Assembly: GCA_036172245.1 (NCBI GenBank)
Contig: JAYWIR010000011.1
Coordinates: forward strand, 4,030,001 to 4,094,000
DNA: 64,000 nt
Source: Raillietiella orientalis
Lineage: Eukaryota
Direction: 5' to 3'
Part shown: piece after piece, positions 39,984 to 62,370 of the stretch
Layout: the number at the start of each line of letters is the position of its first letter
How positions within the stretch are numbered: the stretch's first letter is position 1
The notes under the pieces: generated by a model
The model's database searches: none
What the model was told of the DNA's origin: nothing
The model's input: only the letters and a program-made list of their open reading frames with translations
Made by a program: the position numbers and the translations under genes

Positions 39984-41400
39984 TTTTATCACCCGGTCAC
40001 GCCGGGACGTTTATTATAAAAAATAAACATACATGTGTAGGGCGATCGGCCCTACATTGTCCAAAAATGCTCGGAACCTGCCGAGTAACCGGCACGCAGG
40101 CCGGCGAAGTTCTCCTCAGCAGCGGAGGGGGAGGGAGGCAAACAAAAAGTAGAAAAAAAGTGTATACAAAAATTGATGAGGTTAGGAAAGGGATCGCCGG
40201 GTACTGGAGGGCGCCCTCTGCATCCCTTCCGGGATGACGGCAACTTCCTTGTAAGTATGTCCCACCCGGGGCATCTAGCTGCCGTCCTCAGGAAGTGCAG
40301 GGAGAAGAAGATGGCGTCCCTCTCGTGCCGTCTTCCTCTCGCGTAGCTGCAGGCCGCCACAATCCCACGTAGGCAGCAAAGAGTTGCTAGGGAGCGGCGG
40401 GCCTTAAAGGGTATCGAGCACGAAGAGGCGCTTCGTCACGTCCCTGGGACTGTGCGTCGGTGCACCAAGGGCCGTTGCGTAACGCGACCCCAGGGGACAG
40501 AGGGCAGCAAAGTCTACAAGGAGTTGAGAGAGAGATTCCCGTTGCCTGCACCTGCCACCGTCGTGGCCCACAGTCCCCCGGGTCCAGTGCAACCGGTGGG
40601 CGTTGCACGGGATACCCCGGTGCAACAGCAGAAGTGCCGACTCCTGCCACTTCAGGGGAGGGTCCGATTGCTCTTCAGCGCTGGGATCCACTCGAGGTCT
40701 TCCTGTGGGATTCCCAGCAGCTCAACCCCATGTGCCCTCCAGTTTGGGTGGAGCACTTGGGGTACTGCTACTTGGGGTAGCAGTGTACGTGAGCTGCCCC
40801 GTGGTCACCTAGTTTCCTCGTCTTCCGACTGATTTCCCAACTGACCTCCCATTTGGCCGGCTGGTTGCTGCGCAAGTGCTCCCAGAGATAGGACAGTGCC
40901 GCAGCTAGGGAGGTTCCTTGCGCCCACGCACACGTGGTGGGCTGCACGGCCACATCCTGCAGCGAGCGGTTGTTGTAGAAGGAGTGCAGCAGTCGCTGCT
41001 GCATCTCTGGACTCTCTTCGTTGTTCTTGGCCCAGTGAGAACAGTTCTCTGCAACCAGGCACTACCGTTCGCGGGCCAGCAAAAGATTCAGTAGTTGGTC
41101 CTAATGAGCTTTGCCACTCGTAGGAGCTCCAGTCCGCAGCTGGACACATTGCATCTGCGCCGCCGCTCCAGGAACGAAGAACACTCAGTCCCGCGTAGCC
41201 GGTGGCTCGCTTGACCAGGCTGGCACCAGTTTGTGCCCCAAAACTTCGCCACTAGGTCAAGCGTCCTCCACTGGAGCTGCCGCTCCAGGCACTGCAGCGT
41301 CAGAAAGCCGAGGCCTCCGTCGCGACGCGGAGCGCACAAGTCCTTCACGTGGACTCGGGGCTTCCATATAGGTGTACCCCGAAGAGAACCCTCGCGACAT
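39984..41400 (-). mobile_element. 5'-truncated L1/Tx1-clade retrotransposon (post-RT region to 3' end), decayed
   Basis: KDLCAPRRDGGLGFLTL motif, PPLKWQESALLLLHRGI, a degenerate Cys motif, and the shared 3'-terminal motif at 39984-40104. Confidence 0.85.
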
Positions 41401-41876
41401 TGCCTCCGGAAAGCAGGGAAAACGTACGGTCACTGGGAAAAAAGTCGAGAAAACCGGAACGACAACCTTTGCTGCTACCGCGCAGCCGTCCACGCAGGCT
41501 ACGCAGGTCTCGGGCTCGGAACCGTTTGAGCATACCGAGGAGACATGCGATGAGCCTGGCTGGACGCTTATGGGCAAGAAGGGCAAGTCAAAGAAAAACA
41601 AAAAGCCGCGAAACGCAGCAACGAGGAACTCTCGCGTAGCTATCTGAAGAAGTGCACGGGGAGCATCGAACGCTTTCCGCAATCGAACTCTGCACCGTCC
41701 GTGAACTCGCTGTTTCCGAGTCCGCCTCAGGGGTGCAAACAGTGACCGAGGAGCACCTCTCCGGCCTGCGTGCCGGTTCTCGGCCGGCTCCCTCCGTGAA
41801 ATGGCATGGCCAAGCGTCCTGCCACTGACTCGTATGTTTACCTTTTCAAAATAAATGCCTTGGCGCAACCAGGCGA
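41401..41876 (+). mobile_element. Short retroelement piece: ORF1-like basic tail joined to the family 3' terminus
   Basis: EPGWTLMGKKGKSKKNKKPR (ORF1-like by inference), followed by stem-loop 41761-41776, AATAAA 41850-41855 and stem-loop 41859-41873. Confidence 0.55.
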
Positions 41877-42959
41877 CGAGTTAAGGCCGGAAAGGCCTTA
41901 AGGCGGCCGCCCACAAGGCAGGGATTCGAAATCTGCCCTCCTAAGCATCCACTGTAGTTGTTTTGTACTTTTCGTTATACCGCTTGATCTTGAATCTCTT
42001 AGATTGTACACATGGAAATGCTAGCAAATGTAAATTTCGCACGTTATTTATTGAACCTAAAATGAAAAAAAAAAATGTTTGAATAGAACAAAATTCATTG
42101 TTCATTGTATGTTTTCAAAGTTTTGGAATTCCAGCAAGTGGGAGTGCCGTTTTGACCACAAATCTTAAGCACGGTTACTCCATCTCTGTTCGCATTAATG
42201 AATTTCTGTGGAGTGTCATTTGCATCGGTTCTTCTGAACAAATGATGATTCCGTAAACCATTTGGTGCTCTTTAGTGCAGGTTCCTAGAGGATTTATGGC
42301 TGATCAATTTCTCCTTGACCTGATATGGAACTCTGCTTATTGCGTCTCTGTCTAGCAGGAGGCACTGGAGTTTTGTTATTGAAAGTGCAAGTACCTGAGC
42401 TTCTTTGGTTTTGCAGCTGGTACTGCCTCTTTCTAAGTCTCCAGTCAGATGCCCAAAGCAAATCCTGAGCAGACGGATAGGTTTGCCATCGGAAGATAAG
42501 AGAGAAAATTGAACAGATTACAATTAGAATGTCCCGCTACGCCCACTGAATAGAGGTGAAAGAGGCGGAGAGTTTCCCATTGGCTCGGAGACTGTCTCAG
42601 ACTATTCATAAAAAAGGTATCGGAATTTCCCTTGCATTAGCTCAGGAGAAGTAGTGGCGTAGTAGATGTCGGCCTGGAATTTTAGAGGAAAATGAACTTT
42701 AAGTTCACAACGGCACACACATGCACGGAAATGAAATCCTGAAGTTTGCAGGTTTCCGAAGGGTACAGCGGATGGAGCCTTGACAAGAAAGGATTTTCTA
42801 TCCTTTGCTTGATAATCGACTCTGCGGCACAAAATCAAGGAAGGAGAAGAGCGATCTACAGATGGGAGTGCTACTGATGGAGTGCAACAAAGTGTCGAAA
42901 GCACTCATAGAGTGTCCACAATTCTCAGCAGAAAGCCGTTCCATCGTGACGCAAACCAT

Positions 42960-45204
42960 CGCGGACGGCTGACCGAAGCGGGCGTGCGGAGAGCGCACCT
43001 GATAGCTGGGGACTTCAACGTCCACGTCGGGATGCTCGTTTGGGAATCCTGACGCTGGAGCAAATCGGGATGCAAGTGCAGTTCCGAATGCTGGCACTGG
43101 CCAAGCTATGGACATTCCCGTTGTGTGCGCCTGCGCGCATCTCCCTGCGGAGATGCGCCGGCAGCGAAGGACTGCTCTCGCTGGTGCCGGGCACTCGATA
43201 CAGGATGCGAGGTTTCGGCTTCCCAGTGAGGCAACTCGGCTCACTTCTGAAAGCCCACTCATAGATCTCCTGCCACTCAATAAACTCTATCGCTTGGCAG
43301 GAGGCTGTTGAGTCCTGGGCAGCGTTCCAAGGGATGCACCCTGAAGATCTTTGCCCCCTGCGACATCTGCTACCACGATTTCTGGAAGAGGTGCTGCAGG
43401 ACCAGGTGAAGTTTCCCACCCTGGCCACCACGACCCTCGCCGCAGCGGTGTCTTCCCTAAGGAAAAGAGACGACAGCTGCCTACCGGCGAGGTGGGAGGT
43501 TTCCTGCGCCATCGCGGGAAGAGGAAAACTCCTCGGCGAGTGGAAGACGAGCGAGTTGGCGGATGCTGCCACTCGTGCTATGGCGAGGGGACTCCATCGG
43601 TGGGGAGAAGATCTTGTGCTACTTCCGAGGAACTAGTGGTCCCTCCCTGATGTGTGGATGGTTCGCTGTTCCCCCTTGCTTGGAAAAAGCCGTACTGCTC
43701 TTCATTCACTGGGGATTCCAGTGTAACGAGCGATGGCATCGTGTTTCCAGAGGGGTTACGTCCGCGAACTGTGCAAGATGCGGGGCGACAAAGTCGATCT
43801 CGCACCTACTTTTGGACTGCGGTATCCTCCGAAGACTCTGGCGAAGGCTGGCAACAGCACATTCGCATCGGAAGAATACCGCAGGAGACTTGCTGGGCGG
43901 GTTCTTCGCACCGAGCGGGCTTGGCACAGTAATTGCAACCATGGGTTGCATCCGCGCCCTCGTTTCAGCCCGACAGACGCTGGTGATCAACGGGCAGCGG
44001 CAGGAGGTCATCATGGAGACTGCCACCTCCATTGGGGCGGCCGCCAGGTGGCCTCATCTGACAGAAGAGGCAAAAGAAGAGATCACCGACATTCATCGCG
44101 TCGGAGGTTTTGTGGTTAAGGCTTCCGCGTGTGGCACCGTGCGTCGCGAGTTCGAATACTCCGGCAGAAACTGACGCCACAGCGTCGTCGGGTGCCGAGT
44201 TTCTCCTGCAAGATGGCGCTGGTTGGCCGAGACATCCGGGCTTGGCACCGGTGGTCGTTTAAGCCGGAGGCCCCTGACGAAGGCAGGAACAATGGGAGTA
44301 GACCTTCGGGTTTTTCCAGGAATCCAGGAGTGGGAAGTTCCCCCTCCGGTCGTACAATGGAGAGCGGACCCCTCTCGGCGAGGGTACCCTTCTGGTTTCA
44401 AGATGGAGCAGGAGCCCTCACGGGCACTCTCCTAGTTGTTCGATGGAGCCGACCTCCCCCTGTTGCGGAGGTCCCTCCGAGTCGTCGCCTCTTCACAGAG
44501 TGTGCACAAGGAAGCAAGCGAGAGAGATTCCTTGCGGGAAGCTGCAGCGCCCCTTCTGAGTTTCGGAAGCGTCCCTTCGGGGTTCTTTTCAGAGGAGTGA
44601 ACAGGAGCGGTTCCCTTGCGGGTTCCCTTCGGAGAAGTTAAAATGGAGAGGACCCACCCCCATTAGGGGGTTTCCCTCTGAAGAGAATGAGGAAGGAGGT
44701 TCCCTTCGGGGTTCCCCTTCGGAGACAACCAGGGTGGGAGGTGTGATCCCCGCCGGATGGGGGGAATCCTTCCCGAAGCGTGAGAGGAACGGACTCCGAG
44801 TCCTTCCTGGATTCATAGGGTGGACCCCCTCCTTCCCGAAACCCGACATTCATCGCCGGCTTATAGACGGTTTGCAGCGGCGAACTCGGTGACTCTTGTC
44901 CCCTCCCTCTCTTAATTTATTTAATAATTTGTTATTCTGAACCTTCGTTCCCTTAGACTCCGTAACTTTCTTGGTGCTTTTTGTTTTTACCTCGGTGCAA
45001 AAGGAACTTCACCAAAGAACCGTTCCCCTCCTCTCTCGTTTTGTTTCGCTCTTTGTTGTTGTCCCCCTGTTCCTCCCCCGTTACGAACTGTCCGTTTTTC
45101 CGACCTGCGTGTCGGTGGACCCTCTCTTCTGTTGTTGTTTTGGTTGCGGACTTTGTCATCGACTGGTTTATGTAATAAACGCTCGGCGTGACCGAATGAG
45201 AAAC
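42960..45204 (+). mobile_element. 5'-truncated L1/Tx1-clade retrotransposon (post-RT region, Cys motif, 3' UTR) containing block G copy B
   Basis: PRRDARLGILTLE..QVQFR, SANCARCGATKSISHLLLDCGILRRLW. Homologous to 60991-62370 and 51006-52000. 3'-terminal motif at 45100-45204. Confidence 0.85.
44098..44830 (+). repeat. Dispersed GC-rich repeat (block G), copy B
   Basis: Aligns with 9863-10595. Lies between the ORF2 end and the 3' terminus of a LINE copy. Confidence 0.85.
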
Positions 45205-47891
45205 TCTGGTCCCCATTTTAACGCATAATTCTTTCGCCTTTTACTAAAGAATTGCGTGGACGGGGACGTCTAAATGAGAAATATTCAACGTCCATCTGCT
45301 GTCAGGCGCGCCGAACGGAAGCGCCAATCTGGTCTACGAGATGTGCGCGGCAATGCATGCGCGCAACTTGACCGGACAAGTCGGATGGAGGGAAGCATAA
45401 ACCACGTGTTCCTCGACAATCCGAGACGAAGGCGATGTACCCGCCTAGTTTCGGTCAGCCAGGGTGAGGCTTATTCCAAAGGGAGGTGACCTCAGAAAGT
45501 TAAGCAACTGGCGTCCGATCACGATCGTGAACGCGGACGCCAAGCTGATTGCCGGACTGTGGGCTGCACGTTTGGGACAAGTGGCCGACTCCATAATTAG
45601 CCCGAAGCAGACGTACGCTATTCCCGGGCGAAGTATGGAGGCCAACCTGTTCCTCGCGAGCACATGGTTACACGTGCAGCGGAGTCAAAAGAAAGGAACG
45701 GGAAAATTTGCAACCCCACTTTGGGCGCGCCAGCAGGTCAGGGAAGGGACGCCCGGGTGGGAAAGGGAGCCCTAGCGATCGCAGTCGATCTCCATAAGGC
45801 GTTCGACTGCGTGGACCAGGAACTCCTCCTGGAGCTCCTGGATCGCATGGGCTTCCCACCCTCCCTACTGACCTACCTGCGCTCTTGCTGGCGCAGTGCG
45901 ATAATAAACGTTTTTTTCAGCAGTCAGAATGTGTACGGCGTGCCGGTGCGCCGCGGGATAAGGCAGGGCGATAGCCTGAGTCCTCTGCTCTTTAGCACCT
46001 ACTTCGAGTTGGTGCTGAGAGCGTAACTTTGGCTACCTTGCCGAGCTCGTGTCCCGGCACGCCCGCAGTAGCTGCGCACGCCGACGATCTTCTGCTGATG
46101 TTGCCCATGTCCGCCCCGGCAGCCGCAGTCGAGGATTTCTTCGATCTGCTAAGCCGTGGGACTGGATTGCAGGTTAACAAGGCGAAGTCGTCGGTGGTGG
46201 CGGTTGGTGCGGCGTGGGTTGGACGGCCTGACTGGATCCGCTTGGGGATCCCCACGGCCAGGTACCTGAAGTACCTTGGTGTTCCGTTGAGGGACTTCTG
46301 CCCGTCAGAAGCCTGGTCCGACCGTATCCAAAAGGTGGAGATGGGATCAGCCCGTTCCGGAACGGCAAGTTCTGCTTGCCGGTTCCTCTCTCTCTTCTGG
46401 CAAGTTCTGCTTTCCGGAACGGGCCACGGTCTGGAACTCATTTACGGCTCCTCTCCTCTGCCCTCTTCTTTTTGTTTGCCCCTCCCCACTCGACATTAGG
46501 AAAGAACCGAGGATCTCCTAAGGGAAGCCCTTCGGGGCACAGGGAGGTTCCGAGTTCGTTTAAAAGACTTGCGTGCTCCGCGTAAGGATGGTGGATTGGG
46601 CCTCCTCACGCTGGAGAGGATGGAGTGGCAGCTCCAATTCAGAAGACTCGCTCTCACAGCCAGATGATGGACGACGATCTGGTGCGTACTAGCACGCCTC
46701 CTCGCCAGTAGAGAGACCGGCTGCGAAGGATTGTCTTCGATCTTCCTGGCCTACGACCGCAACCTGAGGCATTGTGATCATCAGCTGCACCAGATGATTG
46801 CCCTGGTGCAGGAAAACACGTGGATCTCCTGCCCCACCACGAACTGCACTGCCTGGATTCTCCTGGAGAAAAAAATCTCCGGCGCAAATGAGACGGGGTA
46901 TGCCTGCCAGCAGCGCGCCATCCAAACACTCGCAAGCCGCTGGAGGAGATCGTTCACAACCCGCAGAAGATGCAGTGGGTCTCGTCTACCCCCCTCTTCC
47001 CAGTGTTATCCTTCCTAAGGGACGCAAGACAGCACCGTCCCAGCGAGGTGGGAAGTAACGAGCTGCATAGCAGCAAAAAAGAAAGTATTGGAGGCGTGGA
47101 CAATTCGGGAAGTGACGGACGCTGCGACCCCGAGTGTCCCACCCTACGGACTTGTATGCTGGGAGAGCTGCTCGGCATCCCTCCGGAGGAGGTGAATTGG
47201 CTCCCAGAATGCTGGAACAGTGCAACCGTCCCCCTCAAGTGGCAGGAGTCGACGTTGCTGGTATTGCATGGGGGAATCATATGCAAAGTACGCCTTCATC
47301 ACTGGAGACGGGATGAGCGTGGGCGCTGAATGCGACTGGTGGAGGAAGAAGGAGACCCTCCCGCACCTGCTGTTGGACTGTGCTGCCCTCCGACCACTTT
47401 GGGATCGCCCCGCGGCAATCCTAGGAATCCCGGTTGGAAGCCACGGGGACAGTTTTAAAGGGCCTCTTCGTGCGTGCCGCTCTGCCATCAGCCGAGTCCC
47501 TCGCAGTCCCCTGCTGCGTCTGTGGAATCGTAGCAGCCTGGAACGTGGGAAGAAGAGGCCAGAATGGCAGGGACGGCATTTACTCGCCATGTACTTCCTG
47601 AAGACTTCTTCGAGATGGTCCCACCTGGACACTATCCGAACATAACTTGCTAGCATCCTGAACGGGATGCCGAGGACGCCTGGCAGCTTACCGTGATCCC
47701 TTCATCTATTCCTCCTTTCCGCATGTATAAATTACCCTCTTCCGTTTTGTTATCTTTTTTGTTTTTGTTTTCCTTTCCCCCAAGCTTCCGAAGCAGACCT
47801 TGCTGGTCTGCATACCGGCCCTCTGCAGGTTCTTTGCGCGTGCAATCTGCATTTTTATTACCCAAGTAATAAATGTCGGACAACCGGGTGA
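45205..47891 (+). mobile_element. L1/Tx1-clade non-LTR retrotransposon with a pseudogenised RT domain, 5'-truncated
   Basis: RT motifs in order: LIPKGGDLRKLSNWRPITIVNADAK, QTYAIPGRS, VDLHKAFDCVD, GIRQGDSLSPLLF, HADDL, GLQVNKAKS, KYLGV, PRKDGGLG, then ETLPHLLLDC. Interrupted by stops and frameshifts. 3'-terminal motif at 47803-47891. Confidence 0.95.
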
Positions 47892-48769
47892 TTATCATCC
47901 TCGTGGGGTTGCTGAGATCCAAGCGTTGAGAGTCTCGGGTACATGAGCTCCCTGCTTCCCCGCATCGACGTCGCCGTCCTCCGTGACGGTCCACGTGCTC
48001 CCTCCCGTGCTTCGACTGGACGGGCGAGCAGCACGACCTACAGGGAGAAGGGGGGTGGGAATGCCCGAGATGCCTGTGCCTCCTGTTCCCGAGCTGAGTC
48101 GCCGTCCCTTCCCTCCTGACTTCCCCGCAACGCGCGAGGATTTCCTGCGTGCTCACGGGACGCGCAACTCCCCCCTCCCCCTCACGCGAGATGCAGCTCT
48201 CGTCTTGATCACGGAGACGACCGTCGCTCCCCTCCACCACCTGCAGCTCCCCTGCGACCCGTGACCTCTACTCACCCTCCCTCCGCTCTAGGGGAAGTTG
48301 TCAAGAAACCGTGTCAGCCCTCCTCGCCTGGAGACGAGTCTCGTCAGATGCAGCACCACGCGATCACGGCACTCACCGGTAGGGTCCTGCTCACTCAGCC
48401 ATCTCTCTGGTTCCCTTCCCGAAATCTTCCATCCTTGCGGAGTGCCACGTCGGCATGGCAGCGCCCCCCCTTCCCCCCGCAGATAGGTGCGCGCTCTCGC
48501 GACGGGGGAGCGGCTGCAAGAGACCCGGGCGAGCCATCCGCCACCACCCTCGCAGACCCACAGAGCGAAGACCCACCACTGTGGTCCCTGTTGGCGGCTA
48601 CGTGACTGCGGACTCCAAGCGTCCCGGGTTCCCATCCCACACCCCAGGGAAAAATCGATCTCGAGAAATGGGGAAGAGGGGAGTGAGCCGTGGATTTCGC
48701 GTTCCTCTGCAAGATGACGCCAGCTAGTCTATTCGGGAGGCGGTAGCGACACGGGGGGAGTTTGGCTGT

Positions 48770-49560
48770 CCCCGTCGAGTGGCCGGGATTGAGTCGACCC
48801 TCCGGGGTCCCTCCAGGAATCAGGGAGCGCATCGGTTCCTTTCGGGGTTCCCCTACGGTGGCGAAAAGGGAGCTCGTCCTATGGAGCTGGTTGACACCTC
48901 CCTCGGAAGGTTACCTCTCCAGAGTGTCCAAGAAGCGCGCTGCTTTCTTCGGGGGTCCCCCTTCAGAAAAATCCGGAAGCATCTCTGCGGAGTTCTCTCC
49001 AGAGGAGCACCAAGAAGGAGCGGCCCCCTCAGGGGGTCCCTCCGGAGAGAACGAGGAAGAGATTCCTTCCGGGGTTCCCCTACAGTTGTGCAAATGGGGA
49101 GTCCCTCCCTTCCCGGAGGGAAACCCTTTATCGAGTACCATGGAGCTGGTGGATGGATGACCCCTCTCCAGTGTCCAAGAAGCGCGCTGCTCCCGTCGGA
49201 AAGCGTTCTTCAGAGAAATTGGGGAGCGCCCCTCCGGGGCTCTCTTCGGAGGAGGAAACGAGGGGAGGATCCTTTCCGGGGGGGTCCCTCCAGAGAAAAT
49301 GAAGGAGAGGTGGTCCCCTTCAAGGTTTTCCTCCAGAGACACCGGATGGCGAAAGTTGCCTCCGGTGTTCCCCTCCCAAGTGTGAGATGGAAGGACACCT
49401 TCCTCCGGGATCCTTCCTGGATTCATGTGGGGTTAAACCCTCCGGGGTTTACCCCTCTGACTTGAGGAGTTACTGTGAGCACTCTCGGGCGGCGTGCGCA
49501 GCGATGAAGAGCTGCGCGACCCACCAGGTGGACGACGGTTCTTCAGTACTCAGCGCTGCG
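48770..49560 (+). repeat. Divergent block G copy E with an internal duplication
   Basis: Same GGGG(T/G)TCCC(C/T)TC(C/A)G(G/A)AGA sub-repeats and TCCTTCCTGGATTCAT. ATGGAGCTGGT...CCTCTCCAG..TGTCCAAGAAGCGCGCTGCT occurs at ~48881 and ~49140. Confidence 0.7.
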
Positions 49561-51005
49561 GGTTTCCCATCGCTCGCCGATGCCAGGAGCGTTTCTTTGC
49601 CTTGGACTTGTTTTCAGTCGAACCTCGCGCAGACCCTGGAAGTGCTCGGCGACCTCCAGCCGCGAGGTGACCCGCTCCTGGGGTCGACTGAGATGGGAGA
49701 GTTTTGCGGTTTATTCTTTATTGTGAACATTTCATTGCTTGTTGCCCTTTTGTCTCTAGACTCCCAGTGCCACGCAGGGCGGGGAACCAGCGAAGGAGGC
49801 AGGGACGCTCTCCGGGAGTTAGAAAATTCCAAACCAACGACGCTTTCTTGTCGTGGGTTCTGGTGTCGAAGGGGGTTCCGTGGTCGCTTTTGTATGCGAT
49901 CCCTTCCCGTAGCATTTCTCGGAGATCTGTCCCGAGTTTTCGACTGCCACGCCGTCATCCGACTCGAGGTCACTTGGTCCGGACAGGAGGCTGCTGGTTC
50001 CACCTGGATTTGTCGTCTTGTTCGTAGACCCTCACCTCGTCCCCCTACCTCCTCTCGTCCAGAGCAGCTCGCTCCTCGTCGCTCACCGGCGCTCCCACCA
50101 CTTGTCTGCCTCCCTCTTGGTGCACTTTGGAAAGGCAAAAGAGAAAAAAAAGGAAAGCAAATGAATCGCAGGCCACTTATTTCGGGAGGAGCGGCACAGG
50201 GGAAGCAGATGCGGAGCCTGCGTCCCAGGCAACCCAGCGAACCAGATCGGGTCGTTCCCAGACAATCCCAAGAACTCTGAGCGGCCAAGCAGCCAAAAGA
50301 CTCACGACCGAGAGCGACCCCGACTGACCAGCGTAACCTTTCCCGCCCAGGGAACGCATCGCTTCTCGCCGGCTTCCCAGACTGCCCCCCGGATGAGCAA
50401 GAACAGGAGGAAGAATCGTACTCACCCTGGAAGAGGGCCACGAGGGCAAATACGAGGAAGCACCTCAACATCGTTCTCAGCCTTGCTCTCTGCTTATCCA
50501 CAGAACTCCACCGCTCGAAGAGTGCCGAGTCTGGATGCTCGTGTAAGCCAACGGGGAATCCGCGAAATTTAGACAGGGACGGCCTTTTAGAATGACTCTC
50601 GCGTGCAAGCGTTTGTCTCGTTTGCTGACGTCACGTGAAAATTGCGCGCGTGGAATGCAGTTTTATGTAGCTGTGGACCGCATTCTCGTTTCGAGGACTT
50701 CCACGAGGATTTGTGAAGCTTCGAAGGCGAGCGCTCCCTGAGCTTTGGCGTCTGTCGAACTCAGGTAGGCGCTCTTCCTCACATTCGGCCCGCTGGAGTG
50801 GATGCTGACGCTTCGTAGAGAAACGGAGGAACTCCAGGGAGGAGTCTGGGTACACTGCAATCCATGAAGCTCGTCGACTCACTTTGCACCCGTTGCCCAC
50901 TGCCCGCTCTTGGGAAAATGCGGCTCCTCCAGACTTCGGCTGCACGCTTTCGCCAAGTTCGACAGGAGTCGCTTGCTATCCAGCACTGCCCGGCACGATG
51001 GGTTG

Positions 51006-52000
51006 TTTCCCAGCCAGGTGCGCCGGGGAGTTTATTACTAAACTATCCAGGAACAGGGTTCCCGGACAAAGGACACAGAAAAACAAAGGGGGGGGATCCC
51101 CGATACGCAGGTCGGTAAACTGAAAGTCCAGAACGGGAGGGAGGGGACCACAAATACACATATAAAAAAATATAAATGAAGATATGGGTAGGGGAGGGGA
51201 CAGGGATCTTTGGTTTCGGCCGTTCCTTTCCTTGAGAACCGGCGGTGGATGCCGGAGATCTCGCTCCTCACGGCCTCTGGAAGATGGACCCACTCGCAGC
51301 CGACGTCATGTTCTCGACGGCTATTCCGGTGGCTTGTCGTCGAATCGCCTGCTCCTCCAGCTCTCGGTGGACCTTGTCGATGGCGTGGGTGCAACAGACC
51401 GTTGCGATGACAGCACCTAAGGACAGGCCGCCTGGAGCGAAGAAGCGGCGCATGAATTCCCTTGCGGTGTCCTGGTGCAGGAGAGCTGAGGCCAGCCTCT
51501 GCCACAGTCCTTGGAGGACACCGCAGTCCAGGAGCAGATGCGGGAACGTTTCCACGTCCCCGCACCGTTTACAGTTCGGGGAGGCAACTCCCCCAGAAAC
51601 ACGGTTCGTCCGCTGGTTGGAGTGAAAACCCCGATGCGCCAGCATGATGACATCCTGCTTCCAAGAAAGGGGGAACACAGAAGTGTTCCAACAGGAAGGA
51701 GGGACCACAAGTTCTTCGGGGGGCACACTCAAATGTTCGCTCCACCGAAGGAGTCCCTTCGGGATGATGCGAGGCGTGGCGGCCAGGCGAGTCCAGTTCT
51801 CCTGGTTATTCCAGAACTCCTCCACGGTACAGTATGGAGAGAGGTTGGCGCAACGGAGTTCCAAAAGAGAAACATCCTGTTGCCTTGCCCAGGCATGCAA
51901 CGGTTCCTGCCGACAGTCGCTAAAGTTCATTGGGCGGCAGGAGATCCATGCGTGAGCTACCAGGAGCCGGTAAAGCGGTTTCAAGAGAAAGCGTTTCAAT
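51006..52000 (-). mobile_element. 5'-truncated L1/Tx1-clade retrotransposon (ORF2 C-terminus and 3' UTR)
   Basis: The 243-aa open stretch 51999-51268 has an intact CxxC-x7-HLLLDC motif. 3'-terminal motif at 51006-51115. Confidence 0.88.
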
Positions 52001-53089
52001 GGGTTGTCGTGGCAGATGTGAGGACAGTCCCGGCGACTCGGTGACGACGGAGACGAACGGCGTTAGGGTGCGCTCACCAGCGTTCGAACGCCGAGGTGGA
52101 TTTCGAGATGGAGCTCCCAGAAGACATGCGCCGCGAGAATTCGTTCCAGAGAGCAAGAAGAGACGCGACAACGCTCGAGTGGAGATTCTGTCCTGCTTTC
52201 ACGGTCGATTTTTCGACAAGAAGATCCTACGAAGAATGCAGTTCGACCTCCATTCCACGCATCTCGTTCAATATACTTGCGTGCTCCTTGCATCGGGGAC
52301 GGGGGGGGGGTTGACACCTCACCTCTTGGGAGCATACCGATAAGAACCTGGCACCCCTGCTCCAATTTGTGTACATTCCCGCGTTTGGGAACCTGTAAGC
52401 TTCGTCTGAATCGCTTTTATTCATTCTTTCATTCTTTGATGCACATGAAAGTGACTGACGGGAAACGTGCTTCTCTCTTCATCCATTCCCTAGCTCCAGA
52501 AACAATGTTCTTCCCGAAATGAGGAGGATGAGCTGCAAGTTTCCGTCCATGAAGATGCACCTGGACGAGAAACAACGACACCAAGACACGCGAGCAACGA
52601 CGCCTTCCATTCGTGTCGTGTGCTCTCCGAGACAGATAAGAGCTAGAAACAGTTCCTCGACATTCTGTGAAAATTTGATAGATCAGCTATGTTTTCTGAG
52701 TCCCCCTGCCGCAATTTGTCATCCTTTTCTCTCTCTCTCTCCCCACAGATGCGTTGGTGCAAACCACGAAGATTGCAGAATTCGGGTTGCACGCGCTCAG
52801 TTTCCCGTCTCCTGAGAGAAAGCCGTGAATGACCTGACAGACGGCTTCGTATTTGCGAACGCATCGTAGTGATGCATGTAGATAAAAAAATGGATTCAAT
52901 TTTTGCATGGCAATCTCAGAAAGGGGAAGCCAGAGAGACGAATTGCAGGGAAAAGAAAGCACGTGCAATTATGAAGGCAGTTCAAATGACGAATCTCAAT
53001 GTAAAGTAAACATACCACGGGGAAGAACCGGGTACACATACAACGTGCGGATTGTACAATGAAACCACGACTCGATACTAAAAAAAAAA

Positions 53090-55450
53090 AATGATGACCC
53101 CAAATCGTGCTTGCATTGAGGTCAGACCGATCAAGAAGCCTCTCGCGCCATCAGACGAGGATCCTAGGGGAATCAGTGTGGGTCAGGACCAACTGAAGGG
53201 AAATGAACTTCGACCTGGAAGCGATGGAATAAGCATTCGGGTGGCAGGAAGACAATTGTCCTTAAGAGTGAAAGCCATGCAGAAATGCCAGGTCAAAGAT
53301 CACGCTATTCCACCATCTACGAACATACGAGGAAGGTCACCTGGAGCTTGCGCGTGGTGTCACGCAAAGATCTCCAATCACCAAGAGTTCCAGATCAAGG
53401 AATGACAACGTTCTGCAAGGGATAGCATCGTTCGTTGGGCCATTTTTCTTACTATTTGCGTCCAGTGTCCTATTCACTGTGATGTTCACTTTACACTGAG
53501 ACTGGTCATTTGAACTGAGTCCGCAATAGTTCATGGTTTTCCTGAAATTAGCTCATTGGCTTCCCCTTTTAAGATTGCTATGCTTTAATTGATTTCCTTT
53601 ATGTACGTGCATCACTGCGATGCATCCGCAAAAACCAAGCCGTGGGTCAGTCAGTAAAGTCTTCCTCTCAGGAATACGAGGAAAATAAGAATCGCATAAG
53701 AAAATTCGCTTCACGCATAAGTTTGAATTTGTGCAGACTTTTTGGCGATTCCAGCCCCCGTTTCGACTCGACACTTCCAAAAGGCCTTCAACCTATTCAG
53801 CTCAACCAAGAAAAAGTACGAGAACCAGGCCGTATTCGGTGGCAGGACACGGCACATGTTTCATTGCCTCCCCTGTCGTGACAGGTGGCAGAAACTATCG
53901 AAGAACTTTTTTTGGAAACTCCATGAACTCTGGCTCTCTCTCCTGTGTTTCCTCCGACAATCTGCAGCACTGCATGGCACCGCGTGGGAACCAGGTGGGA
54001 ACCGAGCCTGAGCGACGTGCTAGCGGCGAATGATGGCTGCCTCGACACGGTTATTTGCCAGCGCTAGGTGATCTCAGGGGCATGTAGATTGCAGCGAAAA
54101 CTTCGTGCAATCCGCACCCGAACCCTAGTTTTTCGTTTACAGGAGCCGCTGCGCCGATTTTCTACCATCGGAGTTCCTTTTATTGGAGCATGTTTACGGA
54201 AACAAGAAGCAGGAAAATCTGAAAGTCGTCATCAGGATGCCAACAGTTTAGATTTGTAGGGATTGCGATCTGCTGTAACGAGCAGCAGGTGTTTCGTGAG
54301 ACATAGAGATGCTCACTTCATATGTGTTGCACATTTTCAAGATCATTTTCCTCAATAACAGTGCCAAAACCCTAAAAGGATGTGTGGTGGATCTTGTGTT
54401 CTCATGCGCACTCTTCTGCAAGGAGGGATTGCAAACCACTGCGGCAGAAGTCCACACGACTTTGGCGCGGTACTTTTGAGACGTTGCCATCAACCAGACG
54501 TGGCTGGAGGACACCTGAGTGGAAAGATGGCTCCGGAACATCGAGATCTACCTTCCTGTACTCGATGGTGGTCAGACCTATGGTGATCACATCCAGAACG
54601 GTATGGATGACCGTCATGAAAGTGCAACGTGAGAGCAGAGTAACTGCTCCACGAAAGAGAATGCTCTCTCTCTATGAGAGTGGGAAGGAGAGACAATGCA
54701 AACGATGAAGACCAACAAAGCTGTTGCATCTCCTCCCTCTCCTCGGTACGTGCCCGCCAATCAGATTAGAAAGGTTTTGGTTTCCCATAGTCACACAGGG
54801 ATCTGTAGGGGACGGCCACACAGCTTTCCATTTCGAGAAAATAGGAATGCCAAGGATCTGGCCACGGTCATCCCTCTTACCGCAAGCCAAAGAAACATGG
54901 ATTCAGAGAAGAAAAACGCCAACCATCGGAGACTGCGAGAACTTCGCGACCGATGAGAACCCCTCATGAAATGCGGGTTATACGGTATAAGCGCCAGTTG
55001 CAAGGATGGGCGACGTACAAGTCCCGCGAATTCCGGCAGGACCTGGGGTCGCAGTGGATCAGAGCCAACCTCCGAGCTTTGGATGACCACATCGAGAAGA
55101 TCACCGCCGCAGAAGTCCTGGAACGATGTGTGCCAGGATTGCGCAACCAGCCTTGAACCCACACGTCATTGGGACAGTCCTCTGAAATGCCTCCAGAGAA
55201 CCAGGACTGTCCCCTGATGCTCTACTACGGAGGGATCCTGTGCGGCACAAGGATCCAGCATCGGACAGAGAACCCGGGCAACGGAGACTGCCCTGCATGC
55301 GGGGATCTGGAAAACGGCTTACATCTCTACACCTATAACCCCCCTTCCCCCTGCCACCCAGAATGGAGAGTGGTTAAGCAGGCGGTGAGATTACAAGTTC
55401 AGTCCGGAGTAGAGATTCTTCGAGTAGTCTTCCGAGGTCGGGGAATCGTC
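53090..55450 (+). mobile_element. Decayed non-LTR retrotransposon of a more distant family
   Basis: C-terminal LMLYYGGILCGTRIQH...DCPACGDLENGLHLY at 55.2-55.35 kb parallels the ORF2 tail. The upstream part is poorly recognisable and the left boundary is uncertain. Confidence 0.5.
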
Positions 55451-56415: not shown

Positions 56416-56847
56416 CTAGCAAGCAGTTTCATGGGCTACTTTCGCGAAGGCTGCTTCTCCACACTTCCGGCATCTTTGTTTACAGGAAAGCACTGCATGT
56501 TTACGCTCACCGGGTCATCTGAGGAGGAAGCGTCTCACGGTTGGGATGTTTCGAGTGGTAGGGCACATTCTGTTTCCTGAGGAATTCCAAGTAGTTTTTG
56601 CTGATCCCTTTTCGTGAATCGAGATAATTGGATGCGAATCGAATCGCCCTGAGTAGGGGCTCATCGACCATTGTGGAGAAACACTTTTGACGTGAATACG
56701 TAATTTCGTTTTCATGCTCACGAACGCTGTTGGTGGCGTTTCGGCACAAAAAGTTTCATTATGAATAGAATCGGGCAAACAGAAAACATGAATTTTGGCC
56801 ATAGGTCCAAACACGATGGAAGAATGTTCTTCTTCCTCCCTGTCCAT
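56416..56847 (-). CDS. Uncharacterised ~118-aa protein with a C-terminal C-x2-C-x9-H-x3-C motif. Exons 56847-56722, 56683-56511, 56473-56416
   Basis: ATG at 56847. Two GTGAG...AAG introns (38 and 37 nt) join three frames in phase. Ends RCRKCGEAAFAKVAHETAC-TAG. No family recognised. Confidence 0.65.
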
Positions 56848-56991
56848 CCCGTAAAATGTTAAGGGGTTATGCACTGCTAATCAATAATTACGATACGTGG
56901 CGCCCTTTCGGTTGCATTGAAGAAGCAACTGCAATTGGTCTCCTTTCAACAGACTGAAAGCCATTGTGCACACGCAGAGAACTGCTCACTT
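56848..56991. promoter_or_regulatory. Candidate bidirectional promoter
   Basis: Only 144 bp lie between divergent ATGs at 56847 (-) and 56992 (+). Depends on the orphan gene model being real. Confidence 0.5.
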
Positions 56992-58570
56992 ATGTTTGAG
57001 GATCAGTATTTTGATATAATTGGTTTTAACAGTTGTGTCTGGAATAAGTGAGTATAGTTTGATTTTCAAATTCCTTCTTTTTCTTCTCTCCACTGCAGTG
57101 AAAAATCCAATCCCGACAAAAGTGTACAAACTGAAGAAATCATTGTTGCAAACACTTTCACTCAGACCAGACCAGAGGAAACTATTTCTGTAAGTTCGGA
57201 CATGGACAGTTAACATGCGTTTTCTAAGATGCAAACCATGATCCCCAGGTACGCAAACAAAGTGGACTATTCCAGTTTGCATACGTTCTTACAAAAAGTG
57301 TATCCAACAGTATCCAAAACACTTAAATCCACTGATGCATTCCATTTCAACACAACTCCCCTTTTCAAAAAGACAGGACTGGAATTGGTACATGAGCTAT
57401 CTGCAGATATACCAGAAGGTTTTCCTGTGAGTTTCTGTTCTGAGTTGCTTGAAATTTATGCGTTTATGAGTCAGTTGGTGATTTCCTGTATGTCTTGGAG
57501 CCACTGTGGCAATTTTTTGGTAGCAGGATACAGTGCATGCAAGCATGAACCATGGTGTAGCCACCAAGGAATGTTTGTTTGCTGGAATCTGCCTAGGTAT
57601 AAAAATCAATATGCTTGTACACGTGATATAAGGTTTATCTCAGTTCTGAAAAGTCTTGCAGAACAATCGATTTATCTTCATGTGTTTCCCAACTTGCATT
57701 TCATCCACTTCAACATGAGCTTCTAGCAATTGGCCATGTTTCAGGAGAAGTAAAAGCAAAGTATTTGCGCTCATATATTCCAGAAAAAATAAAGGTGGCT
57801 GTGTGGCTTGTTAACCATGAAGAAATAAAAAAACTACACCTTATCTGGGGTCATGAAGAAAGTGTCACCAGCTTACAGTGGACTGTGAGGCAGGAAAAGA
57901 CTTTACTGCTATCAGCAGCATTAGATGGCAACATACTGATTTGGAAATTGCAGGAGAATCAATTGAACAAACATCAAAAGTAAGACATATTATGTAAAAA
58001 TAATATGATGTAAGGATGATCAGACTGCAAGTGAGCTGGCAAGGAATAGACATGGGCGTACAATTCCTTAGTTTGCATCCTCTTGGAGGTGATTATTGTG
58101 CAGTTGGGACAGATACTGGACGTGTCTTGCTGGGCCTCTTGCTTCTGGATACCTGTACCGTGACCCAAGAATTGGATTCTCAGTTTTCAGAAATTCTGCT
58201 TGCAAATTTTGATGAGCATGAATGCATAATCACTGTTAGCTGTGATGGAAAACTACAAATGCACAATTCACAAAGACACTGCATCATCTTAAGACATTTG
58301 TTATCATGTGCAACTTCAGTACCACAGAAACCACATCTCCTGCTTACTGGAAATAGCTCTGGAATTATACAATTACATGATCTAGATCATCAGCAATCTA
58401 CAGATCTCTTTGTGTGTCCATCTTCAATTACTAGTCTTACATACAGTTCAAAGGAGTGAGTAGCAATACCAAATAGTTGTCTCACAAAGATTGTTAGTTC
58501 TCAAATTTTAGCTGTTAGCCAGAAAACTGGCAAGGTGTTAATTTGCAGACTTCATCACCATGGTTTTTGA
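56992..58570 (+). CDS. WDR34: WD repeat protein 34 / dynein-2 intermediate chain 2-like. Exons 56992-57047, 57099-57189, 57229-57426, 57475-57596, 57644-57749, 57795-57979, 58024-58455, 58498-58570
   Basis: MFEDQ start. QT light-chain-binding-type repeats (SVQTE, FTQT, MQT). VDYSSLHTFLQKV. SWSHCGNFLVAGY...HEPWCSH...CWNL. LAFHP...LAIGHVSGEVAVW. GHEESVTSLQW...LLSAALDGNILIW. Seven short GT-AG introns in phase. Confidence 0.88.
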
Positions 58571-59608
58571 CAACCAACAGTGATAGACTTTGCTCTACTG
58601 ATCTTAAGTGATCTTCCAACCTTTCTAATTTTTGTATGCACTGCTGCTGTTTTTCTTCCAATTCTTGGATGCGCTTATTCAGGCGCAACTCAAATCCCAG
58701 CAGTAAGCCAGCAAAATTTCTATCAAAGTTATTTTGCATAGTCACATCCTTCTGGTTTGAAGATATCACTCCAATCCTCAGTTTATAGATCCAAAAGGCA
58801 TCCATAGATTTGCAGCCCTTCAACTTTAGAAAGTTTGTAAACATTCTATGAAAAAGCTCACCTGAATGCTACATTTGGATAATGGTTGTGGCAGCAAGAC
58901 AACTGCAAGATAAACTGTCATTCCTTCAAATTCATCAAAGAATTCTGCATGTGAAGTAAACAAATATTCATGTTCTACACCAAAAACCTCTACAAATCTG
59001 GCCTAATAAATAAACAACACTGGAGCACAGACACAAGGCAGTCTTAAAAACTGTAAACATTATTAGAGGAAACACACTAGTATGAAAAGCATGAAAAAAA
59101 TATTTAGGAAATCACATGACTTCATATTTATGGATATTTTCCTGGTCAAATGTATGCACATGCACATTTATATACATAATTTTACTGCCACACAATGCTG
59201 AAAACTACATTCATAACCTTTTCATTGAAACAGCACAGCTTTTTCATAGAAGCTGCAATAACATGAAAGCACTCATGCTTTATATTGTTAAAAACAAGCA
59301 CAAGCTAAACTTACTTCTGAAGCAATACAAATAAACCGTACATATGCCGACTCTTTTGACTGGATGTTCAGCTGGAATGATCCATGCTGTAGAAGAGTGG
59401 TAGAGACATACATGCAATTCGTTGAATTCACATCATTCATCAATTTCTTTTTCTCCGACTCTGCAGAAATGGGTAAATCCCCAACGCAAACGACGTCGTA
59501 CATGTTATTTACGTCGGCATTATTTACTTTCCACATAGGATCCATTGAGATGGTCACATTTTCGGTGTGTTTTGCTTCATGTGTCATTTTAACTAAACTT
59601 TGATTCAT
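58515..59608 (-). CDS. PAAT: PAAT / C10orf88-like protein. Exons 59608-59315, 59002-58862, 58823-58515
   Basis: Spliced motif ICIASE|ARFVEVFGVEHEYLFTSHAEFFDEFEGMTVY resembles the C10orf88 'SEARxxEVY...EY' core as I recall it. C-terminal coiled coil FELRLNKRIQELEEKQQQCIQKLERLE. Phases are consistent. Confidence 0.7.
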
Positions 59609-60990
59609 TTAATACTGCAAAAAGTGTGCTATGAAATTCTGGCGACTTATTGATTATTCTTTTTTTTCCCGTATGTTATATATTTCCGTAAATTATAAGC
59701 CAAATATGGTACATCTTTTATTCCAATCTAACAGTAAAGCTTTTTTTTTTTTTTTGAATCTACGGGAAAAAAATACATATTTACACGCAAAAGTGTTTTC
59801 TAAAACTCCTAGATTAATCGTGTTCATCAACTTTTTCAACTTTGTGATCTGGCATGGCTGATACGAAAATGTTGCATTTTTAGTGAAAACTGGGGCACAT
59901 TTTATGGTATAATCAGTGGCATCGACAAACTTATTCAATCAATTTCCCGATTATCTTATTTCATGATATCAGGTAACACTTCACTCAACATTCTGGTTTG
60001 TGGTAAACACGCAAACATAACGTGCAACCGAAAATCTGGCATTAGGCTTCCACTGGTTCTACTGAGTACTGCAGAGAACTTTTCAAAAAGGTTGCCATAC
60101 TAATCAGAGTAAAAATAATGATACGAAAAGCTAAAAACTTTCGAATGGTAAACAGTTGAAATACAGCTCAGTGTAGTGAATTGTGCAAGAGAAGATGAGA
60201 AAAAACGGGGATTCCTTTGAGCTTAGCAGAGTTGAAAAATGAAGAAAAATAATAAAACTTTTTCGAATTTTCCTAACATTTCAGTCATTTTCAGATGACT
60301 TCTTGGTTGCCATGTGAATAAGTATGAATAAATTTAAACGCTGAACATTAGAAATCAAGAAGTCCATGATGCATGTAGAACAATTAGAATAACATAAAGT
60401 GCATCGTGAAGGGCAATGTCGTGTTATGCCAAATCTTGCAAACAGTGTAATCTGATATTCCAAACAAACTGCATACATTGTATAACTATCTAATGCATGA
60501 TTTTATTAGTCATTACTGTTTATTTTCAGCAGGGATATTTCAATCATAGCTGTAAGTTTCACTGCTCCATTAGTTTTGAAAACAGTGACTTGAATCAAGA
60601 TCTCGAGTATCATTTGCAAGGTTAGCAGAAAAGTATTCGATTCTCCTTGGATCCAAGAAATAGAAAATATTTTATACTGGAAGAAATTATTGCGTCTAAA
60701 AATATTCCGGAAGATGTAAAATGTCAAAGATAGCAAAAATGGTAATTTGACAAATATTATGGAATACAATGTACATACAATTGCATATATATTTCTTTTT
60801 CAGAAAGATACATGTCGAAAGCAGTTCTTAATAAAAAAAAAAATGAAGTCCTAGGAGTTTGAAGAAGCAATCTTATACTGCTGGAATCGTAAGAATTATG
60901 CAAGTTTACCAATGCCTTGCAAACCACATAAGAAACAGCGCCCTGTGCTGACCACAAGAGGCGTTACTTCTATGAAGTAGTTACTATGAA

Positions 60991-62370
60991 GTTTTCACCC
61001 GGTCACGCCGGAGAGTTTATTTTAGAAAAATAAGCCCGAAGACAAAGGAAGCTCAAGAAGGGGGAGGGGAGGGGGAAGGTCAACAGACATACAGCTCTGG
61101 ATATCCAAAAGTTCGGAACGGGGGAAGGGAAGGGGAACAACAAAAAAAAAGAAGATCCAGTTGGGGCAGGGATCCTTGAATTCTCTCCGCATGCACGGGA
61201 CGAAAACAAAAAAACCGGGGAAGTTGCGAAGAGAAGCGAGTGGGAAATGAGAGGAAAATAAAATGAAAAATAAAATAAAATAAAATAGAAGGAGGTTAGA
61301 GACAAGGGTCATCGGTATCCGCCGTTCCTTCATTTTAAAACCGGCGCTGGATGCCGGCTATTTCCTTTTTTCTGACCCGCATCTGGCACAGTTCGGGGAT
61401 GCAACCACTGCGGAAACAAGGGTGCCGGCGCTCATTGCACCGGAATTCCCAGTGGAATTAACAGCACGGCCTGCTTCCAGGAGAGGGGGAACACTGAAGT
61501 CTCCAGACAATGGGGAAGGACTACAGATTCTTCGGAGGCAACACTCAAAAGTTCGCTCCATCGAAGGAGTCCCTTCGCTACGGGACGCAGAGTGGTGGCA
61601 TCCACCTACTCGCGCGTATTCCAGTCGCCAAGGAGTTTGTCCTTCCCTCGATGGTCCGGGAAAACTCCCACCTTGCCGGTAGGCTATTGTTGTCGCGGTT
61701 GCTCTGAGGGAAAACAGCGCTGCGGCAAGGGGTGTGGCGTCCAGGATCGACCACTTCACCACGCCCTGCATCACCACTTCCAGAGCCGAGGCAGCAGATG
61801 TCGTAGGGAGCGAAGATCTCGAGGGCATTTCCTGGGATGCAGCCCGGGACTCAACAGCCTCCTGCCTCCAGGCATTGTAGTTCATTGGGCGGCGGGAGAT
61901 CCACTTTGGGGCTCCTACTAGGGAAGGCGAGTTGCCTCAGGGGGAAGGCGAGTCCCCTCATCCTGTAACGATTGCTCGGCAGCAACGGGAGCAGTCCTTC
62001 GCTGCCAGCACATCTCCGCAGGATGATGCGTCTGGTGCACACAACGGAAAAGTCCACAGTTTGGCACAGAGCACCGTCATTCGGAACTGAACCTGTAGCC
62101 CGATCTCTCCAACGTCCGAATGCCTAAGGCAGCATCTCGATGCAGACTGCCAATTCTTTCAGGCGGATCCTTAGCCTCGCAGGTCCGCCCTATACGCGAG
62201 AGCAACACAGAGGGGGACTTTGCGCAGCGTTTGCTGCCAGAGGGCGCTCCCGCATTAAGGGAGGAGGACAGATTGAACCTGAAGCAGCCTTTCTCGATGG
62301 CAAGGATACCTCTGCCATCGGAAAGCTGAAAAAGCGCAAGGCACCAGGGGAAGAAGGTCTGCCCGCGGAG
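60991..62370 (-). mobile_element. 5'-truncated L1/Tx1-clade retrotransposon (post-RT region to 3' end), decayed
   Basis: LRRCAGSEGLLPLLPSNRYRMRGLAFPLRQL is nearly the same as the 43.1-43.25 kb peptide. SPNCARCG. 3'-terminal motif at 60991-61099. Confidence 0.85.

Follow-up and report, generated by a model that had tools for sequence, protein, structure and literature searches.

A conserved, hairpin-bearing 3' end without poly(A) in an L1-group retrotransposon family of Raillietiella orientalis

Introduction

A covarying 3' hairpin shared with short interspersed elements (SINEs) has been described for an L1 lineage of the monocots maize and sorghum, and the 3' end of L1-1_CR of Chlamydomonas is also shared with a SINE (PMC3472496). 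A 3' repeat is missing from 9 of 233 L1 families of flowering plants and from 5 of 15 of green algae (PMC3472496). Among L2 elements, the protein of open reading frame 2 (ORF2) binds the 3' stem-loop in ZfL2, and UnaL2 requires a bulge (PMC4176376). A conserved stem-loop in the 3' untranslated region (UTR) has been proposed for human L1 too (PMC5135761). The ancestral L1 may have recognised either a structured RNA end or plain poly(A), a matter still undecided (PMC3472496, PMC4176376). The targets of Tx1 families are DNA transposons, long terminal repeat (LTR) elements, small nuclear RNA (snRNA) genes and microsatellites (PMC4494074). The present work deals with a family of non-LTR retrotransposons in the 210-Mb genome of Raillietiella orientalis, six copies of which (A to F) lie in a pile of mobile elements that fills 36-62 kb of the window, a stretch of 64,000 nt at positions 4,030,001-4,094,000 of contig JAYWIR010000011.1.

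The 3' end of the family is well supported, and the family probably combines stringent 3'-end recognition, a known strategy in a new form, with a Tx1-like target preference. Judged from the sequences, the hairpin end is most likely a handle for the element's own copying enzyme. The ORF2 protein would grip the terminal stem-loop (SL2) and start at a fixed register, which would represent stringent 3'-end recognition, of the kind known from L2 and R2, in an L1-group element (probability about 0.6). The stringent L1-clade cases known so far are plant and algal, and the present family is animal.

Like monocot 1a (LINE1-1_ZM with ZmSINE2/3) and L1-1_CR, the family belongs to the L1 clade and has a conserved 3' hairpin with compensatory changes and a conserved loop (PMC3472496; PMC3747384). 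An earlier sequence-only reading of the window had contrasted the stem-loop recognition of L2/CR1-type LINEs with the poly(A) of mammalian L1; the implied view that such recognition is foreign to the L1 clade is not borne out by the published maize/sorghum hairpin and the SINE partner of L1-1_CR (PMC3472496). Unlike the plant and algal stringent L1 elements, the family has an animal host and three hairpins, the last one past AATAAA, and no SINE partner was found for it. L1-1_CR ends in poly(A), which the Raillietiella family lacks (PMC3472496; PMC3747384). A likeness to the maize structures closer than that described here is possible (PMC3472496). As in ZfL2-1, ZfL2-2 and UnaL2, the distance between the terminal stem-loop and the end is fixed, and a possible one-base bulge in SL2 is reminiscent of that required in UnaL2 (PMC4176376). 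However, L2 is a different clade and ends in short tandem repeats (TGTAA in UnaL2; PMC3747384), whereas there are no terminal repeats here. The L2 loops are cognate-specific and their binding by ORF2 has been demonstrated (PMC4176376), whereas SL2 is common to all lineages of the present family and we infer its binding. Human L1 has the same endonuclease (EN)-reverse transcriptase (RT)-zinc finger ORF2, target-site duplications (TSDs) of variable length and 5' truncation, but its poly(A) tail and T-rich primer (PMC3472496) have no counterpart in the Raillietiella family. Literature searches, with subscription papers mostly outside their reach, returned no description of this terminus, which is weak evidence of absence.

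Collection of 3' ends

The sequence-only reading had described the ends of copies A to F as a stem-loop (SL1), a spacer, AATAAA, SL2 and a short tail, and all 12 stem-loop sequences quoted in it were found in the window at the positions and on the strands assigned to them. A profile search gave 187 ends from 220 loci and the window, which were reduced to 185 by removal of two false ends. A further 140 short ends were fetched, and the 138 left after removal of two duplicates, together with copy D of the window, brought the total to 324. As the majority of the 324 ends were found through patterns fixing parts of SL2, counts for SL2 are biased towards conservation.

Pattern searches were controlled with the reversed pattern. 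The linked pattern SL1 loop-N50-78-AATAAA-SL2 gave 311 matches in the genome vs 0 in the control, and the looser AATAAA-SL2 pattern gave 1,453 genome-wide matches vs 3 in the control; on contig C1 the genome matches are scattered over the full 12 Mb. Other loop variants gave 177, 67, 684 and 303 matches (overlapping sets) vs 0 each, and the exact terminal pattern had 0 matches in metagenome contigs. The genome-wide collection suggested by the sequence-only reading thus yielded far more copies, together with lineage-specific target sites that this reading had missed.

The 3' terminus

In the 185 ends, the two bases after SL2 are T in 97% and G in 91%; a variable pair follows, then A in 89% and again in 85%, after which conservation stops; the tail is thus TGNN with 1-3 A. 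TSDs of at least 11 nt were found for 29 of the 185 ends compared with 1.4% of 916 controls, the search covering 1.5 kb of upstream sequence at most loci. The TSDs begin where the tail ends, which identifies the latter as the true terminus. Homology extending well past SL2 had been named in advance as a possible objection and was not observed. A host target repeat or snRNA promoter as the source of the motif was ruled out by the heterogeneous flanks after the tail and the start of the TSDs at the tail.

The lack of poly(A) reported for the window copies holds throughout the collection. Seven or more terminal A residues are present in just 1 of 324 ends, and the A run is 1-3 nt long in 285 of the 297 ends that have A at tail position 5 (the other 27 have no A there or, in the case of copy D, were unscored). 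Within a cluster the length of the tail is almost constant (e.g. 12/12 and 11/11). The final C of the tails quoted previously is the first base of the flank.

A pyrimidine follows the A run as the first flank base in 275 of 297 ends, A being excluded by the definition of the junction. Among 28 copies with TSDs (29 rows minus one tandem), 12 have an A directly before the cut and none has AA, the junction being inferred across a mismatch in about seven of the 29 rows. The primer end is therefore purine-rich with at most one pairable A, which excludes poly(A)/T-tract priming of the human L1 type. Neither a 3' poly(A) joined to an A-rich target strand, as in relaxed mammalian-type L1, nor a short tandem repeat, as in L2/CR1-type elements, is present.

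In 291 of 324 ends, the T after SL2 and the first A of AATAAA are 24 nt apart. The stretch before AATAAA is U-rich (48% T), and TGTA occurs upstream of the end in 146 of 324 cases vs 70 expected. We take these features to correspond to a CPSF-type cleavage distance and a UGUA element.

RNA structure of the 3' end

The module has the order SL1, middle hairpin, U-rich stretch, AATAAA, SL2, TGNN and 1-3 A. Hence, the end that had been called bipartite includes three hairpins, the third being situated in the supposed spacer.

SL1 consists of a covarying stem and a near-invariant CUGCGU loop. In 21 anchored sequences, 15 representing clusters and six being the window copies, 93.3% of 105 cells were paired and 17 changes were two-sided; neither value was attained by any of 500 shuffles, and controls with slid partners were only 20-48% paired. 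The same five-pair helix was predicted by RNAalifold. In 20 clusters of at least two copies, the majority pairs are C-G (12), U-A (5) and G-C (2) at pair 1, G-C (13) and A-U (4) at pair 2, and C-G (13) and U-A (3) at pair 4, and these variants recur on separate branches of the ORF2 C-terminal tree (121/169 ends). Many lineages extend SL1 by an outer stem past an internal loop. In an unbiased set, SL1 was present in 34 of 82 ends vs 1.9% by chance.

The middle hairpin lies in the 55 nt before AATAAA. The folding z of this segment was below -2 for 14 of the 31 cluster representatives (mean -1.62), and that of the ORF2 controls for 6 of 40 (mean -0.20). Its fold is kept and its sequence is lineage-specific.

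The 5-bp stem of SL2 is the same at the majority level in 14 of the 15 UTR clusters with at least three copies and is re-registered by one base in the 15th. The SL2 module is constant across lineages whose ORF2 C-terminal parts share 23-37% identity. At its CpG pair the copy-level changes are symmetric (T-G 27, C-A 24), which indicates decay and no covariation. The stems had been described as covarying, which is correct for SL1; in SL2, the changes taken for compensatory or G-U substitutions look like decay. Thus, a conserved 3' stem-loop with compensatory changes, as in elements of the stringent type, is represented by SL1, and SL2 is conserved yet invariant. SL2 may extend by 2 bp past a one-base C/U bulge, the added pairs being possible in 85-90% of 289 ends and lost in two clusters.

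Whole ends of 123-142 nt folded better than shuffles in three of the six window copies (z -3.3, -2.8 and -2.2; the rest 0 to +0.75) and in neither of two young copies, so the structural case depends on the local helices. Two tertiary contacts were considered and left unproven. Most SL2 loop variants are compatible with an SL1-SL2 kissing loop, but the CAUAA lineage breaks the pairing without compensation, and pairing of the SL1 loop with an AYGY linker shows no two-sided change and competes with the bulged SL2 extension.

The Rfam comparison proposed in the sequence-only reading matched the module to no known RNA family or ribozyme: window positions 35000-64000 gave only a U5 and one sub-threshold microRNA match, and 20 loci gave three sub-threshold matches. 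The U5 match is a truncated retrocopy and not an snRNA promoter. ARAGORN made no call in the window or in 22 loci.

Affiliation of the element

The element is ~5.6 kb long. An intact-looking copy (L111, ~5,650 nt, 10-bp TSD) encodes an ORF1 of 553 aa with CCHC knuckles (zf-CCHC 20.6 bits, cut-off 20.8) and an ORF2 of 1215 aa with Exo_endo_phos (43 bits) and RVT_1 (80 bits) domains, both above cut-off. A zf-RVT match in ORF2 is weak (E 0.002-0.02, under the curated cut-off). The best match of ORF2 among solved structures (PDB) is human L1 ORF2p (E 8.5e-52), R2-type proteins following at 7e-16 and weaker. ORF2 homologs, among them L1-like proteins of fish and plants, bear RVT_1, Exo_endo_phos and zf-RVT. 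The identity of database relatives does not exceed 30%, except for the 619-aa fragment P0065 (67%), the sole close relative found beyond the loci of this genome.

In an RT tree (64/65 proteins, no labelled Tx1 reference), the family and a sister family occupy a long branch with support 0.998, without a clear neighbour among the other proteins. We place the family in the L1/Tx1 group of non-LTR retrotransposons. Of the earlier L1/Tx1-clade label, the L1 group is upheld by the match to human L1 ORF2p, and Tx1 membership is possible. Features of the L1 group that the family shows are an ORF2 with apurinic/apyrimidinic-type endonuclease (APE) and RT, an RT nearest to L1, a separate ORF1, a C-terminal CCHC motif, variable TSDs and 5' truncation. 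Insertions have TSDs of 10-17 bp and lengths of 78-5,650 nt. The ORF2 C-terminus lies directly 5' of the end in 151 of 185 cases, many of the others being very short truncations or tightly cut loci. Window copies A, C, D and E are just 23-37% identical pairwise in the C-terminal part of ORF2, in agreement with the earlier claim that at least two ORF2 subfamilies have the structure in common.

The sister family (L061-L080; C71, C114, C53, C139, C150, C76, C189 and C26), also of the L1/Tx1 group, forms head-to-tail arrays with a period of ~5.5 kb, and many of its copies have a long open ORF2. Its end includes AATAAA, a bulged hairpin and a short purine (G/A) tail without poly(A), and the top Pfam RT matches belong to it and not to the family studied. 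Insertions of just 78-154 nt with TSDs of 12-16 bp (L155, L124:2120-2230, L027, L014 and L217), two of which lack SL1, are products of very early 5' truncation. At L184:1170-1400, an ankyrin-repeat-like frame seems by eye to continue up to the stop codon where the 3' UTR of the element begins.

Copies in the window

39984..41417, minus strand: copy A, 5'-truncated C-terminal part of ORF2 and 3' UTR (tblastn, ORF2 805-1191 at 41417-40262)
40077..40122, minus strand: extended SL1 of copy A with outer stem, internal loop, inner stem of 5-6 bp and CUGCGU loop (core 40089-40104)
40036..40056, minus strand: middle hairpin of copy A, inside the spacer of the sequence-only reading (folding)
39984..40015, minus strand: terminal module of copy A with AATAAA (40015-40010), SL2 (39992-40006) and tail TGATAAAA
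39301..39983, plus strand: ORF1 hosting copy A, RNA-binding domain and CCHC knuckle (tblastn E 1e-36; Atlas look-alikes of CCHC/ZCCHC3 type)
41745..41880, plus strand: copy B, 3' module alone with a decayed tail (motifs, folding); SL1 41761-41776, middle hairpin 41802-41824, AATAAA 41850-41855, SL2 41859-41873
43025..45203, plus strand: copy C, 5'-truncated (tblastn, TSD); SL1 45100-45115, AATAAA 45174-45179, SL2 45183-45195, tail end 45203
43014..43024 and 45284-45294, plus strand: 5' and 3' copies of the 11-bp TSD of copy C
45204..45272, plus strand: 3'-truncated U5 snRNA retrocopy in the tail of copy C (Rfam RF00020, 52.2 bits, gathering score 40)
44099..44842, plus strand: SINE-like repeat with tRNA-like head inside copy C (self-BLAST; no ARAGORN call)
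42960..43024, plus strand: 5' piece of copy D, endonuclease codons through GDFN
45284..47894, plus strand: 3' piece of copy D, remaining EN (internally deleted), RT and C-terminal part (Pfam RVT_1); SL1 47803-47818, AATAAA 47868-47873, SL2 47876-47887, tail TGATTA
51006..51998, minus strand: copy E, 5'-truncated (Pfam zf-RVT under cut-off); SL1 51100-51115, middle hairpin 51044-51068, AATAAA 51036-51031, SL2 51014-51026
60992..62186, minus strand: copy F, 5'-truncated; SL1 61084-61099, AATAAA 61021-61016, SL2 60999-61011, tail TGAAAA

Copy A, with its terminus at 39984, is inserted antisense in the zinc-knuckle region (residue ~263) of another element's ORF1, and the z of its SL1 fold (-3.32) was equalled by 0 of 200 shuffles. 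At copy B, neither an ORF2 upstream (tblastn) nor a TSD was found at the locus, and the copy either was very short when inserted or derives from a longer one by deletion. Copy C is inserted in sense orientation at the GD^FN codons of the copy D endonuclease (host frame AHLIAGDFNVH). The U5 retrocopy in its tail is bordered by a 9-bp repeat (45195-45203 and 45273-45281) and was either inserted later or joined by a template switch as reverse transcription began. The flank of copy D begins with TCATCC, as in the target of its lineage. Copy E has a 9-bp TSD (50998-51006 and 51999-52007), and a search for TSDs of copies A, B, D and F found none. The closing pair of SL1 is broken in copies E (C-A) and F (G-G).

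The SINE-like repeat inside copy C has a 13-bp TSD (44086-44098 and 44843-44855). It is one of a repeat family of ~0.7-0.8 kb with a tRNA-like head and a palindrome-rich body, found in the window at 9862-10578, 37179-38011, 38611-38979, 44099-44842 and 48913-49555.

Target sites

Flank motifs are specific to the individual UTR clusters and follow the ORF2 branches. ORFs of sister elements make up 86 of the 185 flanks, a number inflated by loci chosen via ORF2 searches; the corresponding values are 37 of 112 for loci centred on the pattern and 8 of 29 for the unbiased subset. Six positions account for 49 of the 86, although repeated junctions may in part be duplicates of one event:

ORF2, antisense, 311-312: 16 ends in 9 host-flank groups at 90% identity
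ORF2, sense, 171-172 (GD^FN): 11 ends in 5 groups
Antisense, 502-503: 8 ends in 5 groups, three with TSDs and differing truncation points
ORF1, sense, 441-445: 7 ends in 4 groups
Antisense, 71: 5 ends in 3 groups
Antisense, 80: 2 ends

The flanks of four clusters lie in sister-LINE (long interspersed element) ORFs in 19/20, 10/13, 8/8 and 4/4 cases, the loci being derived in part from the ORF2 search. In cluster 57, 8 of 10 flanks are in one SINE-like repeat. A tRNA-headed SINE-like repeat is the target in 12 related flanks, the 13th of the group being unrelated; two LINE lineages insert in a SINE-like target whose head is related to that of the 0.7-0.8 kb repeat of the window. An unnamed repeat is the target in six flanks (L138, L217, L210, L011, L205 and L148; ~1530-1600). 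It ends in a hairpin and a T run, the CAUAA-loop lineage inserts in it at GGATTTCCA^TCATCC, and no Rfam or tRNA call was obtained for it. A short copy of the 502-site lineage is located at the 311 site (L009), a single case that gives a hint of cross-mobilisation or overlapping specificity.

By Kojima's rule (one sequence type in >20% of flanks), the family has a target preference of the Tx1 type. Like Tx1 (which inserts in Tx1D), Tx1-Mar, Tx1-8_Crp and Tx1-9_AMi, it is APE-type and L1-related, with a preference for sites in other transposons (PMC4494074). Unlike the Tx1 targets, those found here are sister-LINE ORF codons, a SINE-like repeat and an unnamed repeat, and the Tx1 text compared (PMC4494074) is silent on a hairpin terminus. 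Insertion into existing copies and nests of 5'-truncated ends are shared with the L1-type Zepp/ZeppL (PMC8226300). However, Zepp inserts into itself and forms a single cluster on each chromosome (PMC8226300), whereas the lineages here cross-target at distinct sites and their ends are dispersed.

Role of the 3' end

In the mechanism proposed, the RNA would be cut by the host ~23 nt after AAUAAA and probably polyadenylated. The ORF2 protein, assisted by SL1, would bind SL2 and set the template register. Target-primed reverse transcription would then begin at the first A residues (1-3), which would form no more than one base pair with the primer, at a site selected by a lineage-specific endonuclease.

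Several observations weigh against recognition of the end by ORF2. SL1 is not universal: it is present in 196 of 324 ends overall, its loop and stem occur in just 16 of 29 unbiased long loci (150 nt searched), and one lineage has only a vestige in place of the canonical SL1. Kinship alone can let related sequences beat the SL1 shuffle control without structure, and SL2 contributes no covariation evidence. TGTA is absent or nearly so in three of the 12 largest clusters (0/11, 0/10 and 1/31). The U5 fragment retrocopied into the tail of copy C implies that RNA without the module is copied by some RT of the genome. A candidate check and one head-to-tail pattern (0 matches) revealed no SINE with the same tail. 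The candidate L166 was ruled out, as it is another LINE lineage inserted in a SINE.

The main rival explanation, unlikely though it is, regards the module mainly as a signal for 3' processing or stability. The hairpin would fix the AAUAAA cleavage site or protect a non-adenylated end, RT would start at the last base of the RNA, and conservation would result from host processing or export factors. The fixed position of AATAAA and the U-rich, TGTA-enriched upstream sequence agree with this explanation, as does the SL2 common to all lineages, which does not diverge with ORF2 in the way of the cognate-specific loops of ZfL2-1 and ZfL2-2 (PMC4176376). But relaxed RT on polyadenylated RNA predicts long A tails and T-rich primers, neither of which is observed, and the variable downstream flank leaves no place for a fixed downstream element. 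The two roles are not mutually exclusive.

Pairing of the RNA tail with the non-primer strand past the nick, which would select or open the target, is improbable. It was suggested by the GA/GG-rich tails and TC/CC-rich targets, such as TGAGAAA with TCTC and TGATAA with TCATCC, and in the discovery set reverse complementarity exceeded label permutation (12 tail groups, p 0.001). With 132 held-out ends, however, p was 0.03 by group and 0.085 by copy, and 0.43 and 0.76 in the unbiased subset. A meaningless non-reversed complement did better (p 0.002), which points to base composition, and the TGATAAA tail occurs with three target motifs in three lineages. The least probable explanation is that the structure is incidental, young GC-rich termini being shared by descent and CpG decay mimicking compensation. 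It draws on the symmetric decay of SL2, on SL1 pair 4 being a CpG/CpG pair, and on the three window ends that fold no better than shuffles. It is largely refuted by SL1 pairs 1 and 2, which are non-CpG and include a C-G to G-C flip, by the excess of pair-keeping T-G (29) over pair-breaking C-A (9) at SL1 pair 4 (copies not independent), and by retention of the module while ORF2 falls to 23-37% identity.

A more speculative extension, to which we attach less credence than to a processing signal and more than to tail pairing, is that the lineages form a guild with a shared SL2 handle and separate targets. Any ORF2 would grip the end of any member, so that RNAs would be cross-mobilised, and the structured tail (SL2 and TGNN) would hold the nick open without primer pairing. 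The tail would perhaps pair with the displaced target strand or be locked by a contact of the SL1 loop with the AYGY linker. If so, the family would unite a portable, R2-like 3' module with a set of naturally occurring endonuclease specificities in an element of the L1 group.

The family offers a clean system in which to test the kind of RNA end that the ancestral L1 recognised. Its ORFs look intact, its precise ends without poly(A) number in the thousands, and its targets start with a pyrimidine. It also supplies a handle of 30 nt, stem variants that occur naturally, and numerous lineages in which differing target motifs go with one shared RNA end. A portable handle would in addition have a bearing on site-specific RNA-templated gene insertion.

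Other features of the window

A multi-exon SLC4 anion-exchanger gene with Band 3 cytoplasmic and HCO3 transporter domains is present at 15763-25900, its nearest named matches being arthropod and lancelet proteins (43-56% identity). Exons of a gene for a double-stranded RNA-binding-domain protein are located at 31174-31686 (minus strand) and those of a beta-propeller protein at 57214-58459 (plus strand). Segments 30111-30389 and 31742-32007 are 66% alike, and 52810-53013 and 53482-53673 form an inverted repeat.

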